Position numbers and translations under genes: made by a program. A stretch of 64,000 bases of DNA from Escherichia coli. GTDB lineage: Bacteria; Pseudomonadota; Gammaproteobacteria; Enterobacterales; Enterobacteriaceae. How positions within the stretch are numbered: position 1 is the stretch's first letter; every line of letters starts with the position of its first letter. Shown here in pieces: positions 13,304 to 63,820 of the stretch. The stretch is from the NCBI RefSeq assembly GCF_050920415.1, contig NZ_CP169309.1; one strand, given 5' to 3'. A model generated the notes under the pieces. It made no database searches and was not told where the DNA came from. It saw nothing but the letters and a program-made list of their open reading frames with translations.

Positions 13304-13349
13304 AATAAAGGGGGCGTGTGGTCAGTAACCTGACCACACGCAAACTTAT

Positions 13350-46930: not shown

Positions 46931-50638
<3,708 letters not shown>

Positions 50639-50641
50639 CGC

Positions 50642-51361
50642 TTATTCCCATGCATGAGGCGCAAAAAGATAGCCTTTGTTACGCACAGTTTTAATGCGAT
50701 AAGGTTCTGCGGCGTTATCGAGCAGTTTTTTTCTTAATCGCGAAATAGCCACATCCACGCTACGATCCAGACCATCATAACTGACGCCACGTAAGTTCTT
50801 CAGCAATGCATCGCGGTCCATGATTTGCCCGGCATGAGTGGCTAATTCCCACAATAATTCGAAATCAGCCGTCGAGAGCGAGATTTCAGCATTAGCCAGA
50901 GTGACTACGCGGTTGATGGGATCGATAGTCAACGTGCCGAAATGCAGGGCTTTGTAGGGAGTCAGCGTCGTTTCCTGAAGACCTTTGCTCAGTGTGGCTT
51001 GCTCATTCTGACGCAAATGCAAACGTAAACGCGCTAACAAAACAGCAGGGGGCGTCGTTTTGAGAATATAGTCGCAGGCACCCATTTCTAGTGCCAGGAT
51101 GTGGTTCATATCGCTATCGAGAGAGGTTAGAAGAACAATCGGTCCGGACCACTTTGCGCGTAAATCACGACAAATGGTCATGCCGTCCTTGCCTGGTAGC
51201 ATGATATCGAGTAACACCAAATCCGGATTTTCTCGCAGAATAGTTTCTTCGGCCTGGTCGCCGCGCGGCTCTACGGTAACCTGCATATCATGTTTTGCCA
51301 GGTACGCGGCAATCAGTGAACCGACTTCCGCATCATCTTCCACAAATACGATAGTGTTCAT
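50642..51361 (-). CDS. rstA: OmpR-family response regulator RstA
   Basis: ORF 50642..51421; start set at MNTIVFVEDDAEVGSL (239 aa); receiver plus winged-helix domains. Confidence 0.9.
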   Translation of the reverse strand: MNTIVFVEDDAEVGSLIAAYLAKHDMQVTVEPRGDQAEETILRENPDLVLLDIMLPGKDGMTICRDLRAKWSGPIVLLTSLDSDMNHILALEMGACDYILKTTPPAVLLARLRLHLRQNEQATLSKGLQETTLTPYKALHFGTLTIDPINRVVTLANAEISLSTADFELLWELATHAGQIMDRDALLKNLRGVSYDGLDRSVDVAISRLRKKLLDNAAEPYRIKTVRNKGYLFAPHAWE

Positions 51362-60738: not shown

Positions 60739-61560
60739 CTATTTTTGCAAAAGTTGGTCTAGCTTGTCGCGAAAACCAGTGACAGAAATGGCCCGGTTAT
60801 CGGCACGCCAGCGATCTTTCGCGGCAGGAGCCGAACTTTGCACGCCAATTAACTGCCAGCCGTCATCGGTATGCAACATCAGAGGCGAACCGCTATCACC
60901 CGGCAAAGTATCGCACTGATGCGACATCACCGACGTTTGCGCCCAGCCAGTTACTTCGCAATTTTGATGACTGTATAGCGTATCGAGGTGATCTTCAGGA
61001 TATCCCGCTTGAGTCACTTTTCGACCTGCCGCTTTTAATGCGGCGGTAAGTGCGGCTTTATCTCCCGCAAATAACGGCAACGGTGTAATGCCAGAAGGGG
61101 GATTACGTAGCACAATCAAACCGAAGTCCCACGGCGCAGCTGCGGGAGGAACAATCCAACCATCCCCATCTGCTTTTAACCGCTTTCCCAGTGTCGGGTC
61201 AACGCGGCCTTCTATGTCGTGGATCTCATAGCGCCAAAGACCTTTACTTGACACAAAACGCAGCGCCACCGCTTTATCGGCTTTACCCTTTGGCGGCGTC
61301 AATAAACAGTGTCCTGCCGTTAATGCCAGATTGGGTGCAATCAGCGTCGCCGTACATAAATTGCCGCTGGCCGTTTCCAGTTGCCCAACCGCATCCCACG
61401 GTGATTGGGTCGTGTCATTCACGGGCACACGATCATCATGACCAAAAAACAGGGTGCTGACCTCATCGTTTGCCGATTTGGCAACGTCTGGTTTATCTGC
61501 AAACACAAAAGCAGACGTCAAACTAATTGCACCCAACACTACAGCAATGGTTGTACGCAT
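60739..61560 (-). CDS. ydgD: Putative secreted trypsin-like serine peptidase YdgD
   Basis: ORF track 273 aa; signal peptide; TAGHC His motif and GDSGSP Ser motif. Confidence 0.85.
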
Positions 61561-61659
61561 ATCACACTCTGGTGGGTAATTATGATTATTAAAAGCAAAC
61601 CCTCATAAATACTATAGACGGGACGGGATGAAAGTGGGAGTAAAATCAGATAACTACGA

Positions 61660-61743
61660 TCAGGAAAGATAAAAACGGGTGGCAATCAGTGCGCATAAAA
61701 TAAGGATGATAAGAATGAACTCAAAGCGATAACGGCCCACCAT
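61660..61743 (-). CDS. ydgU: Small hydrophobic protein YdgU (27 aa)
   Basis: Manual minus-strand translation MVGRYRFEFILIILILCALIATRFYLS; GGAGGG Shine-Dalgarno about 7 nt upstream; not in ORF track (under 60 aa). Confidence 0.6.
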   Translation of the reverse strand: MVGRYRFEFILIILILCALIATRFYLS

Positions 61744-61835
61744 ACTACCCTCCGCTAAAGGCGGTGCTAAACGTTACCCGCTTAGCACCGTAATTTTCAG
61801 GCGCGAGGGGGCGCGCCAGCATTACTGTTGAAAAC

Positions 61836-62144
61836 TTACGCTGCGGGTTGTGCAGCAGGTTTTGCCGGTTGCTGATGGCTGTGTTTCTTGGCGTGTTTCT
61901 TCGCTGCCTGCGCTTTTTGTTCAGGGGCTTTCTGTTCAGCTTTCGCATTTTTATGATGCTTTTTAGCCGCCTGCGCTTTCTGGGCAGGTGCTGCTTTATG
62001 CTGTTTTTTATGATGTGTAGTTTTCGCCGGCGCTGCTTTGGTGGTCGTCGCAGTCGGAGCAGGTGTGGTCGCAGTCTCTGCAGCAAAGGCGGCAGAAGAC
62101 AGACCCATAGCAGCGGCAACAACCAGAGCTAATACTTTTTTCAT
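61836..62144 (-). CDS. asr: Acid shock protein Asr (periplasmic, Lys/His/Ala/Gln-rich)
   Basis: ORF 61836..62171; start set at [21 protein letters not shown] (102 aa); low-complexity basic repeats; RstA-box-like site upstream. Confidence 0.9.
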
Positions 62145-62247
62145 TGTCATACCCTCAATTTGTTTTTTCATTTAACCCCACTGCGGGGCCGTTGAAATAA
62201 CTATATCCCTGGGAATGGCAGACTTCCGTGAGTGGTTGGTTTCAGCG

Positions 62248-62261
62248 TGTAACGATATGTA
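62248..62261 (-). promoter_or_regulatory. RstA-box-like site (TACATATCGTTACA) upstream of asr
   Basis: Minus strand matches the RstA consensus TACAT-N-T-N-GTTACA as I recall it, about 105 bp upstream of the asr ATG. Confidence 0.6.
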
Positions 62262-62566
62262 CAAACGTTAAATAAATTACAGCGTTGATAATAACGTATT
62301 GTGACTTAAGGGAAATTTAGCTACCAATAATAGTAGTCTTGATCGGGTTAACTATTTTACTACTTACAAAGCGGTAGAATAACTGCGCATCAGTAATAAA
62401 TGACACACAGCAAAATGAATCCGTTTATTTGGGTACTTATAATCCTGATGACACTAGATGCGCTGCGGGAATTGGCTGGCGCTTCGTCTATTTTAGGATG
62501 GCTATTAACGTTGGTTTGAGCAGGCAATAAGTCCGGATGGGTATTTACCGCAGTCCGGACTTATTT

Positions 62567-63820
62567 TTAGGCGTGCAGACGACGATGCAAACGCGTCCCG
62601 ACCAGCAGAGCAATGACCAGCATCAGAGCAATAAATGCGCCGACGCCGTTCCAGCCATAGTTATGCCAGAAAACACCACCCAGCGTCCCGGCAATACTCG
62701 ACCCCAAATAGTAACTGAACAGATACAGCGAGGAGGCCTGGCCTTTAGCGCGTTTTGCGCGGGGGCCGATCCAGCTGCTGGCAACGGAGTGGGCTGCGAA
62801 GAATCCGGCTGAGAAGAGTAACATTCCGGCAAAGATTAGCCACAGCGAGCTGAATAAGGTCATCAGTAAACCAAACAGCATAACCCCCGTCGAAAACAAC
62901 ATCACCGGACCGCGCCCATAACGGGTGGTCATGGTTCCGGCTTTGGGTGAGCTCCATGTACCGGTCAAATAAGCCAGCGATAATAAGCCAACCACGGCCT
63001 GACTGACATGCCAGGGGGAAAGCATCAACCTATAGCCGATGTAATTAAACAGCGTGACGAACGACCCCATCAGCAAAAAGCCTTCTGCGAACAATAACGG
63101 CAATCCCCGGTCACGCCAGTGCAGACGAAAGTTGATAAATAACGTCTTTGGTCGCAGGGAAGTCGGGCGAAAATGGCGTGATTCCGGGAGGATTTTCCAG
63201 AACATCAACGCCGAGGCCAGCGCGAAACAGCCGATAGCCGCCAGAGCAATTCGCCAGTTGAAAAAGTCCGTGAAGACACCGCTAATTAAGCGTCCGCTCA
63301 TGCCGCCAATTGAGTTGCCGCTGATATACAACCCCATCGAAAAGGCCACGAAACTGGGGTGGATTTCCTCGCTAAGATAAGTCATGCCAACAGCTGCCAC
63401 GCCACTTAACGAAAGCCCAATCAAGGCGCGCATAATCAAAATGCCGTGCCAGCTGGTCATCATTGTCGAAAGTAACGTACAAATGGAGGCCAACAGTAGC
63501 GCCGTGACCATCACTGGTTTGCGACCAATGGCATCGGATAGCGGGCCAGTAAACAGCAAACCGATAGCCAACATCGCCGTTGAAATGGACAGTGAAATAC
63601 TACTGTTCGCAGGCGTTAAGCCAAACTCCTGCGAAAGCACCGGAAGGATAGGTTGCACACAATAGAGAAGTGCGAAGGTTGCCAGTCCGGCAGAGAAAAG
63701 CGCCAGGGTGACGCGCATAAATTGCGGCGTACCGCGTTTAATAAATTGATTTGGCTGAGAAATGCTTTGCTTGTCAGTGACGCTTGCCGGAGCGCCATCA
63801 ACAGTTGTAGTACGGCTCAC
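62567..63820 (-). CDS. ynfM: MFS-family transporter YnfM
   Basis: ORF track 417 aa, 12 TM-like segments; divergent from LysR-type ynfL. Confidence 0.9.
   Translation of the reverse strand: MSRTTTVDGAPASVTDKQSISQPNQFIKRGTPQFMRVTLALFSAGLATFALLYCVQPILPVLSQEFGLTPANSSISLSISTAMLAIGLLFTGPLSDAIGRKPVMVTALLLASICTLLSTMMTSWHGILIMRALIGLSLSGVAAVGMTYLSEEIHPSFVAFSMGLYISGNSIGGMSGRLISGVFTDFFNWRIALAAIGCFALASALMFWKILPESRHFRPTSLRPKTLFINFRLHWRDRGLPLLFAEGFLLMGSFVTLFNYIGYRLMLSPWHVSQAVVGLLSLAYLTGTWSSPKAGTMTTRYGRGPVMLFSTGVMLFGLLMTLFSSLWLIFAGMLLFSAGFFAAHSVASSWIGPRAKRAKGQASSLYLFSYYLGSSIAGTLGGVFWHNYGWNGVGAFIALMLVIALLVGTRLHRRLHA

Follow-up and report, generated by a model that had tools for sequence, protein, structure and literature searches.

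In Escherichia coli, the asr promoter carries an RstA box at -77..-55 and a PhoB box at -39..-22 (PMC9026648). Removing or scrambling the RstA box abolishes RstA binding in EMSA (PMC11135836), and the activity of Pasr at pH 5 is rstA-dependent (PMC13425233); the RstA step at the asr promoter is established in the literature. The asr gene and the downstream gene ydgU, also named samT, form a published RstA-dependent operon. Both genes are up at pH 5 in an RstA-dependent manner (PMC13425233), and at pH 4.4 the two rank with the most induced genes, with log2 fold changes in RNA of 12.4 for ydgU and 9.4 for asr. The DNA just upstream of ydgU has negligible promoter activity, and the asr upstream region is PhoQ-dependent (PMC11429745). 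SamT is an inner-membrane peptide that inhibits RstB, and the operon, as demonstrated in 2026, encodes one positive and one negative modulator of the two-component system that controls it (PMC13425233). The operon structure and the SamT feedback have both been demonstrated in published work, whose authors pose the question of whether asr and samT can be differentially expressed (PMC13425233).

Here we analyzed this locus in a 64,000-nt stretch of an E. coli genome (the window, 64 kb), following up an earlier note made from the sequence. We consider it likely that the region comprises the known acid- and low-Mg-inducible asr promoter and transcription unit, together with two terminator-type elements, one between asr and ydgU (hairpin B) and one beyond the 3' end of ynfM (hairpin 1).

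The asr promoter and its RstA box

The following features were located at the promoter and at the regulator genes.

62248..62261, minus strand: RstA box TACATATCGTTACA, two TACA half-sites 10 nt apart, an exact consensus match and the published site
62212..62247, minus strand: conserved block cgcTGAAACCAAcCACTCACGGAAg... downstream of the RstA box, nearly invariant in 60 loci, covering the published PhoB-box / -35 area
62200-62205, minus strand: -10 hexamer TATAGT, read from the sequence
near 62193, minus strand: predicted asr transcription start, which places the 3' end of the box at -55, as published
61836..62144, minus strand: asr, 102 aa (open reading frame list; NCBIfam NF033636, 99 bits; RefSeq annotation)
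50642-51361, minus strand: rstA (NCBIfam equivalog model), 10.9 kb from the RstA box
49337-50638, minus strand: rstB (NCBIfam equivalog model)

The earlier note had reported a 14/14 match to the RstA consensus about 105 bp upstream of asr, with rstBA 11 kb away. The match is indeed exact, though the consensus TACATNTNGTTACA consists of 12 specified positions and 2 N, and the 3' end of the box lies 103 nt from the asr ATG (62144); the distance of rstBA is also borne out, at 10.9 kb, by genes confirmed with NCBIfam equivalog models. This is the sole exact match to TACATNTNGTTACA within the window, and none of 100 shuffles contained one. When up to two mismatches are allowed, the window holds 5 sites where 3.8 would be expected, which leaves the exact site as the only one that stands out. 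In the work of Ogasawara in 2007, asr is said to have been among the sites behind the RstA consensus. The consensus test is therefore partly circular, since asr itself is among the sites that define it. The derivation from genomic SELEX, asr included, is as quoted in a passage of PMC4117788.

Conservation extends beyond the window. The arrangement TGTACA-N4-GTTACA is present in all 60 orthologous enterobacterial asr upstream regions, in 59 of them at 102-106 nt from the ATG. Relative to the predicted start near 62193, the box spans about -68 to -55, upstream of the -35 region. A consensus promoter scan called no promoter in the region. As published work has demonstrated, phosphorylated RstA binds the direct repeat TACA-N6-TACA at about -68..-55 and activates the sigma-70 promoter of asr, whose -35 region is overlaid by the PhoB site. 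Control of asr by acid and PhoQP-RstBA through this box, as the earlier note had proposed, is correct and was already established by published EMSA and rstA dependence, and the headline of that note adds nothing to what has been published.

Hairpins between asr and ydgU

The asr promoter drives asr and then, by read-through, ydgU/samT, the product of which feeds back negatively on RstB, as published work has demonstrated. The intercistronic region contains the following features.

61660..61743, minus strand: ydgU = samT, 27 aa (NCBIfam NF052476, 71.5 bits)
61749..61753, minus strand: Shine-Dalgarno sequence GGAGG of ydgU/samT; GGAG is invariant in 44 of 44 aligned sequences
61762..61790, minus strand: hairpin B, CGGUGCUAAGCG-GGUAA-CGUUUAGCACCG, intercistronic, with the tail CCUUUAGC, identified by folding and covariation
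61800..61817, minus strand: hairpin A, GGCGCG-CCCCCU-CGCGCC, in the asr 3' region; it folds, has no U-tract and has a d-score of -45

The 8-bp stem that had been noted at 61763-61789 is present and extends to 61762-61790, with arms at 61762-61773 and 61779-61790. In the asr-sense RNA it forms 12 contiguous pairs, one of them G.U, with -20 kcal/mol. Hairpin B begins 45 nt past the asr stop codon and, in keeping with its described position just upstream of the ydgU ribosome-binding site, ends 8 nt before GGAGG. It is kept in both the MFE and the centroid folds of the 634-nt transcript. Its E. coli tail, CCUUUAGC, has 3 U in 8 nt, short of a U-tract, and the terminator score is d = -34, on a scale computed with ViennaRNA energies instead of the original parameter set, so that its zero point is approximate. 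The low score arises because the two hairpin-proximal residues of the tail are C.

Hairpin A is a third hairpin, absent from the earlier note. It covaries in Citrobacter (GGCGC/GCGCC, GGCGT/ACGCC and GGCAT/ATGCC), and unrelated GC hairpins occupy its position in Enterobacter, Leclercia and Kosakonia. Folding shows no structure in the ydgU-ydgD interval (z = +1.3), and the unit thus has no strong 3' structure besides hairpins A and B.

The comparison across genera strongly supports hairpin B as an RNA structure. In an alignment of 44 sequences, 92% of the cells are paired and 10 of the 12 pairs show compensatory changes, a result reached by none of 500 shuffles, while slid controls give 30-54% pairing. 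One pair can be followed from C-G in most genera through U.G in E. whittamii to U-A in E. coli. The alignment holds 17 G.U cells that would be A.C on the opposite strand, and the stem is stronger in the sense RNA (-20 kcal/mol) than in the antisense RNA (-14.2), which together indicate that selection acts on the sense RNA. Within E. coli, the 92-nt asr-ydgU spacer is far more conserved than its surroundings, being at least 99% identical in 4328 of the 5422 E. coli records that have a match.

The tail of the hairpin differs between lineages. Twenty-six of the 44 orthologues score as terminators, with U5-U8 followed directly by the Shine-Dalgarno sequence, and the distance from hairpin to GGAG is 8-21 nt throughout. 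The tail in Klebsiella is UUUUUUUC, and that in Escherichia and Citrobacter is only CCUUUAG, with d-scores of -26 to -42 in Escherichia. In Intestinirhabdus, ydgU looks degenerate, yet a hairpin with U5 persists after asr. On these comparisons, hairpin B is a predicted terminator-type element, orthologous to canonical terminators that consist of a stem and U5-U8 in most other genera, with a U-tract that appears to have been eroded in Escherichia. The earlier statement that this stem lacks a clean U-tract is correct for the asr strand; the companion statement that it is not a simple terminator is only partly right, as the orthologues in most genera have canonical terminator anatomy.

In most Enterobacteriaceae, hairpin B would act as a canonical intrinsic terminator with a U-tract directly adjoining the samT Shine-Dalgarno sequence, so that samT would be expressible only via terminator read-through. 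In Escherichia and Citrobacter, the U-tract appears to have been eroded to CCUUUAG. For E. coli, this tail leads us to infer either leaky termination or stabilisation of the 3' end, through which asr would exceed samT. The E. coli hairpin would terminate weakly, and its main role would probably be to give the abundant asr mRNA a stable 3' end by acting as a pause site and exonuclease barrier, with more asr message than samT message as the outcome. The rise in ydgU RNA at pH 4.4 is at least as large as that of asr, which counts against this reading and points to substantial read-through. The original asr Northern reportedly showed an RNA of about 450 nt. The distance from the predicted asr start to the 3' end of hairpin B is 432 nt, and that to a point past ydgU is at least 534 nt; the reported size would agree more closely with an RNA that ends at hairpin B than with one that ends past ydgU.

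The available portion of the Term-seq tables of Adams 2021, which come from neutral pH, lists no 3' end at K-12 16717xx (hairpin B) or at hairpin 1, and this absence is weak evidence against the terminator-type reading because asr is nearly silent under that condition. The TERMITe supplements contain nothing at hairpin B or hairpin 1. A consensus terminator scan called neither hairpin, owing to its loop-length and U-tract rules. An Rfam scan of 61000-63000 with E up to 10 returned only chance-level matches inside ynfM. We also considered REP or another repeat palindrome for hairpins B and 1 and rejected it, as both regions occur once per E. coli genome (median 1 place) and belong to no Rfam family.

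It is rather doubtful that hairpins A and B are non-terminating in E. coli and that, once a longer asr-ydgU-ydgD transcript has been cut by an endonuclease, they only shield the asr message against 3'-5' exonucleases. Such shielding would agree with the missing U-tract in E. coli, with the lack of anything terminator-like after ydgU and with a published Term-seq 3' end 116 nt inside ydgD, and intercistronic hairpins with a stabilising role are well known as a class. However, most genera have a true terminator as the orthologous element, and three U residues remain in the E. coli tail. Pure protection overlaps with the leaky-terminator reading, and the two are not separated by sequence alone.

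A role of hairpin B in RNA stability or in ydgU translation in E. coli, as the earlier note had suggested, is possible. It is unlikely, though, that hairpin B is mainly a translational control element that tunes ribosome loading on read-through transcripts, either through the stable stem 8 nt upstream of the Shine-Dalgarno sequence or through a weak GCCUUU/GAGGGU pairing that covers it. The hairpin is always 8-21 nt from GGAG, the fold does pair the pyrimidine tail with the Shine-Dalgarno sequence, and translational control is named as one possible route to differential asr/samT expression by the authors of PMC13425233. However, the covering pairing is weak and its structure is not conserved, the tails varying by genus, and the full intrinsic-terminator anatomy in most genera needs no translational role. 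In addition, the translation efficiency of ydgU does not change significantly at pH 4.4 (log2 -1.96, adjusted p 0.49).

We regard it as highly improbable that a 3' UTR-derived regulatory small RNA is processed from the 3' region of asr, which comprises hairpin A, an A/U linker and hairpin B. The model for such an RNA is CpxQ, a small RNA cut from the cpxP mRNA. The asr mRNA is very abundant and stress-induced, encodes a periplasmic chaperone and ends in two hairpins, and other genera show the hairpin plus U-tail typical of Hfq-binding RNAs. However, the stretch from the asr stop codon to hairpin B contains no conserved single-stranded "seed", its sequence differing wholly between genera; there is no Rfam match, E. 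coli has no U-tail, and the literature searched contained no mention of such an asr RNA.

A terminator/antiterminator switch formed by hairpins A and B was also examined. Cross-pairing of the arms (GGCGC/GCGCC) would be feasible in Escherichia and Citrobacter but not with the versions in Enterobacter, Kosakonia and Klebsiella, so the switch was rejected as a conserved mechanism. No antiterminator structure conserved across genera was found for hairpin B, and there is thus no sign of a regulated switch.

Within the terminator-type reading, a tentative extension is that hairpin B is a tuned internal terminator, which sets, and lineage by lineage re-sets, the ratio of Asr (positive) to SamT (negative) among the modulators of RstBA. 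If so, each asr transcript would yield little SamT in genera whose U-tract is complete, and in Escherichia and Citrobacter the eroded tract would tie SamT feedback more closely to asr. A stronger version would have read-through vary with conditions, for instance with pH, Mg2+ or an RNA-binding factor. A tuned terminator would answer the question of differential asr/samT expression posed in PMC13425233, and the hairpin, lying exactly between asr and samT, offers a concrete and mutable handle on that question.

A conserved small gene convergent with ynfM and the hairpin between them

The region between asr and ynfM contains a small gene that the earlier note had missed, and its stop codon faces that of ynfM across hairpin 1.

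62375..62380, plus strand: candidate -10 TAGAAT of the small gene; ggTAGAAT is conserved upstream of the gene in Escherichia and Citrobacter
62415..62519, plus strand: KPN_01571-family small gene, 34 aa with the conserved MNPF start, or 39 aa with the upstream ATG at 62400
62526..62565, between the convergent stops: hairpin 1, AAUAAGUCCGGA...UCCGGACUUAUU, with a U-rich run at 62561-62568 on the plus strand
62567..63820, minus strand: ynfM, MFS transporter (open reading frame list; RefSeq annotation)

The small gene matches NCBIfam NF033695 with 63.3 bits against a curated cutoff of 35. It is annotated by PGAP and is missing from the MG1655 record. Between-genus comparisons of 27 loci give dN of 0.2-0.3 and dS of at least 1, and the differences by codon position are 3570/1072/5359, a clear coding signature at the sequence level. 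The gene is conserved, its predicted 34-aa product is a membrane protein, and it is convergent with ynfM in every carrier locus, including those in which asr lies at a distance of more than 1.7 kb. The candidate -10 was not called by the consensus promoter scan, the gene has no obvious Shine-Dalgarno sequence in Escherichia, and a literature search on the gene, expression included, found nothing. The MG1655 reference annotation thus has no entry for a conserved 34-aa membrane-protein gene convergent with an MFS transporter gene. Among small proteins encoded beside a transporter, AcrZ, MgtS and KdpF for example, regulation of that transporter is common.

The 12-bp perfect stem reported right after ynfM is present and 100% complementary, with coordinates that had been one base short at each end. 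Its 12-nt arms (62526-62537 and 62554-62565) enclose a 16-nt loop, and it is separated by 1 nt from the stop codon of ynfM (62567-62569) and by 6 nt from that of the small gene. The folding z-scores are -5.5 and -6.9, none of 200 shuffles being as stable, and it is one of two perfect hairpins of at least 12 bp in the whole window. The absence of a clean U-tract, as noted previously, holds on the ynfM strand (tail GCCUGCUC), but on the plus strand the stem is followed by UUAUUUUUA. With that tail, the best plus-strand score is borderline (d = +1.5) because of the long loop; the minus-strand tail UUAUUGCC gives a best d of -20. The earlier view that this stem is not a simple terminator is only partly right, as it overlooks the U-run on the opposite strand, directly past the stop of the small gene.

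Nearly all loci with the small gene have a hairpin at the same position between the stops, with unrelated stem sequences. Within Escherichia, the stem shows compensatory and wobble changes, and the T5-6 run on the small-gene strand is invariant. Hairpin 1 would be a terminator common to ynfM and the convergent small gene, presumably efficient for the small gene, with its GC core and UUAUUUUUA, and weak for ynfM (UUAUUG). From its anatomy and conservation, hairpin 1 is best read as the putative terminator of the small gene, shared weakly with ynfM.

It is quite unlikely that hairpin 1 belongs to ynfM only, as terminator or mRNA stabiliser, and that the plus-strand open reading frame is an unexpressed annotation artefact. 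Proximity would suit such an assignment, with 1 nt separating the hairpin from the stop codon of ynfM; a GC hairpin also follows ynfM in most loci that lack the small gene, Kosakonia and Phytobacter carry the U-run on the ynfM strand, and no expression data were found for the small gene. However, the open reading frame is under purifying selection, with its start, length and stop conserved across many genera, and every Escherichia sequence has T5-6 on the small-gene strand, with UUAUUG as the ynfM-sense tail.

Comparison with known systems

The RstA box found here is identical to the published box of the asr promoter in the PhoQP-RstBA cascade, with no difference; that box, beside the PhoB box, is needed both for binding by RstA and for induction by acid. 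What the present comparison adds is the near-fixed distance at which the box and the next 36 nt downstream are kept in 60 enterobacterial species. The conserved box holds also in Klebsiella and Raoultella; an imperfect TACA/TACT box has been described for K. pneumoniae asr (PMC4117788).

Hairpin 1 resembles bidirectional intrinsic terminators in being a single hairpin between convergent stops, A-rich on one side and U-rich on the other, and in that the flanking runs partly pair and lengthen the stem (AAUAA/UUAUU). Unlike symmetric bidirectional terminators, it appears asymmetric, with a good predicted tail on the small-gene strand only.

Hairpin B resembles leaky intercistronic terminators or attenuators and 3' stabilising stem-loops in being a conserved GC-rich hairpin between two cistrons of one operon. 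As in leaky operon-internal terminators, the downstream gene has no promoter of its own, and a U-tract follows the stem in most genera. Unlike intrinsic terminators, the E. coli hairpin has CCUUUAG in place of the defining U-tract.

As an RstA target that encodes modulators of RstB, the asr-samT operon is like the MgrB-PhoQ and UgtS/UgtL modules (PMC13425233), feedback systems in which a target of the two-component system codes for a small membrane protein that modulates its sensor kinase. In ugtSL, the product ratio is set by mRNA isoforms. Unlike in UgtS/UgtL, the candidate ratio-setter of asr-samT is an internal terminator-type hairpin, and not a second promoter.

The RstA box and the asr promoter

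The observations made on the asr control region in the earlier note are confirmed, with small coordinate corrections, and the hairpins there are ordinary terminator-type elements. Over 1.4 kb, the locus matches NZ_CP169399 at 100% identity and 5,400 other genomes at 95-100%; the window runs opposite to MG1655, and the K-12 coordinate is 1733520 minus the window coordinate.

Features of the asr locus (window positions)
62567-63820, minus strand, ynfM
62526-62565, hairpin 1, between ynfM and the small gene
62415-62519 (or from the ATG at 62400), plus strand, small gene convergent with ynfM
62248-62261, minus strand, RstA box
61836-62144, minus strand, asr
61800-61817, minus strand, hairpin A, in the asr 3' region
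61762-61790, minus strand, hairpin B, between asr and ydgU
61660-61743, minus strand, ydgU (samT)
60739-61560, minus strand, ydgD

The exact RstA-consensus match noted about 105 bp upstream of asr, TACATNTNGTTACA, is the only one in the 64 kb and has no counterpart in 100 shuffles; 103 nt separate its end from the asr ATG, and relaxed matches in the window occur in numbers at chance level. The genes rstA and rstB lie 10.9 kb from the box, close to the 11 kb noted. Reckoned with the -10 element TATAGT at 62200-62205, the box occupies about -68..-55, which agrees with the published -77..-55 (PhoB box at -39..-22; PMC9026648). Genomic SELEX supplied the consensus, and asr is said to have a canonical site (PMC4117788). 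All 60 asr upstream regions from the 80 fetched enterobacterial ynfM loci carry TGTACA-N4-GTTACA and the next 36 nt, and in 59 of the 60 the distance to the asr ATG is 102-106 nt. Deleting or scrambling the box abolishes RstA binding (PMC11135836), and rstA is needed for activity of the asr promoter (Pasr) at pH 5 (PMC13425233), which bears out the proposed acid and PhoQP-RstBA control. The observation and its reading are thus both right and both already known. Two further features lie in the inferred asr 5' UTR (62145-62193, minus strand): a small hairpin, CCCC-GCAGU-GGGG, and, at 62171 (minus strand), an in-frame upstream ATG, which explains why a mechanical ORF list gives 111 aa where Asr is annotated with 102.

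Hairpins between asr and samT

The 8-bp stem noted between asr and ydgU is real and forms part of hairpin B, which on the sense RNA has 12 pairs including one G.U (-20 kcal/mol) and is kept in both the MFE and the centroid fold of the full 634-nt transcript. In an alignment of 44 orthologous sequences, 92% of the cells are paired and 10 of the 12 pairs show compensatory changes, a level equalled by none of 500 shuffles (slid controls, 30-54% paired); at one pair most genera have C-G, E. whittamii has U.G and E. coli has U-A. That selection acts on the sense RNA is evident from the 17 G.U cells of the alignment and from the weaker antisense stem (-14.2 kcal/mol). Of the 5422 E. coli records having a match, 4328 carry the 92-nt spacer at 99% identity or more, a conservation much above that of the surrounding 1.4 kb.

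The earlier note suggested that this stem may not be a simple terminator, a reading that is right in part. The Escherichia tail CCUUUAGC (d = -34) falls below the terminator score, as does hairpin B of Citrobacter. By a d'Aubenton-Carafa-type score, whose zero point is approximate because ViennaRNA energies were used, hairpin B qualifies as an intrinsic terminator in 26 of the 44 orthologues. In Klebsiella, Raoultella, Trabulsiella, Enterobacter, Kosakonia, Phytobacter, Leclercia and others, U5-U8 comes after the stem and leads straight into the samT Shine-Dalgarno sequence, and in Intestinirhabdus, where ydgU is apparently degenerate, a hairpin and U5 are still present after asr. From this comparison we conclude that hairpin B probably represents the ancestral asr terminator, with samT situated behind it.

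Hairpin A (GGCGCG-CCCCCU-CGCGCC), which the earlier note did not mention, lacks a U-tract. Its position is conserved; the Citrobacter stems covary and keep the CCCCC loop, and unrelated GC hairpins take its place in Enterobacter, Leclercia and Kosakonia.

Hairpin 1 and the small gene convergent with ynfM

The 12-bp perfect stem reported right after ynfM is present, with arms at 62526-62537 and 62554-62565 and folding z-scores of -5.5 and -6.9. The window has just one other perfect hairpin of at least 12 bp, at 13314-13341 (GCGTGTGGTCAG-N4-CTGACCACACGC). In hairpin 1, a 7-bp GC core is extended by AAUAA/UUAUU pairing, a layout typical of two-way terminators. The stated lack of a clean U-tract holds for the ynfM strand, where the tail is poor (best d = -20), but not for the plus strand, where it is good (best d = +1.5, a borderline score). 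Within Escherichia, the stem varies by compensatory or wobble steps and the loop varies freely, with the T5-6 run of the small-gene strand unchanged throughout. A REP element was considered and rejected because hairpin 1 is single copy. Here ynfM ends in TAA (62566-62569), where K-12, O157 and other Escherichia have TGA; the 1-nt deletion responsible leaves a shorter spacer to hairpin 1 and turns the plus-strand tail UUUUU(U)CAGG into UUUUUAGG.

What the earlier note missed is the partner gene of hairpin 1, a plus-strand ORF that stops 6 nt short of it. It matches NCBIfam NF033695 ('KPN_01571 family', model name trnsprt_adja_30; 63 bits) and is annotated by PGAP in many E. coli genomes, including one K-12 derivative, though not in the MG1655 reference NC_000913.3. 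It is convergent with ynfM in 27 loci from many genera, including loci with asr more than 1.7 kb away, and nearly all of these loci have a hairpin between the two stop codons, with unrelated stem sequences. Both the MNPF start and the length (about 30 aa) are conserved, differences by codon position are 3570/1072/5359, and between-genus comparisons give dN of 0.2-0.3 versus dS of at least 1, with purifying selection in Escherichia, Citrobacter, Kosakonia, Klebsiella, Raoultella, Phytobacter and Pluralibacter. This substitution pattern indicates a real gene; we found no paper on it or its expression. Its product is hydrophobic (34 aa), and ynfM encodes an MFS transporter; the small protein could act as a partner of YnfM.

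Across the fetched loci (L009-L083), the order asr-ydgU-ydgD is retained almost everywhere, and in most genera outside Escherichia 1.7-3 kb of additional DNA separates ynfM and the small gene from asr. Close ynfM-asr spacing, and with it a divergent arrangement of the small gene and asr, is confined to Escherichia and a few other loci, e.g. Trabulsiella guamensis and Superficieibacter. A contig labelled Chryseobacterium sp. 18061 (L061) carries an enterobacterial ynfM/small gene/asr-ydgU-ydgD locus with 83% YnfM identity and is probably mislabelled or contaminated.

Expression of samT behind hairpin B

Since 2026 ydgU has been called samT; the 27-aa peptide it encodes binds RstB and exerts negative feedback at acid pH, opposite to the positive feedback by Asr (PMC13425233). 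Promoter activity of the DNA immediately upstream of ydgU is negligible (PMC11429745), and samT is therefore expressed via read-through from Pasr. Both asr and samT rank among the most-induced genes at pH 4.4. One Term-seq table (Adams 2021, neutral pH) lists no 3' end at hairpin B or hairpin 1, and folding found no structure in the ydgU-ydgD interval. The same supplement places a 3' end at 61444 (minus strand; K-12 1672076, plus strand), 116 nt into ydgD and preceded by ...CCCUGUUUUUUGG, where folding gives no convincing terminator hairpin (z = -0.8); read-through transcripts from asr-ydgU may end there, or the position may reflect 5' attenuation of ydgD.

We infer that hairpin B is leaky in E. 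coli and serves mainly to mark and protect the asr 3' end. The authors of the samT study ask whether asr and samT can be differentially expressed (PMC13425233); the asr-samT spacer is not discussed there, and 'terminator' appears in the reference list alone. The evolutionary history of hairpin B makes this current question of asr/samT stoichiometry directly testable.
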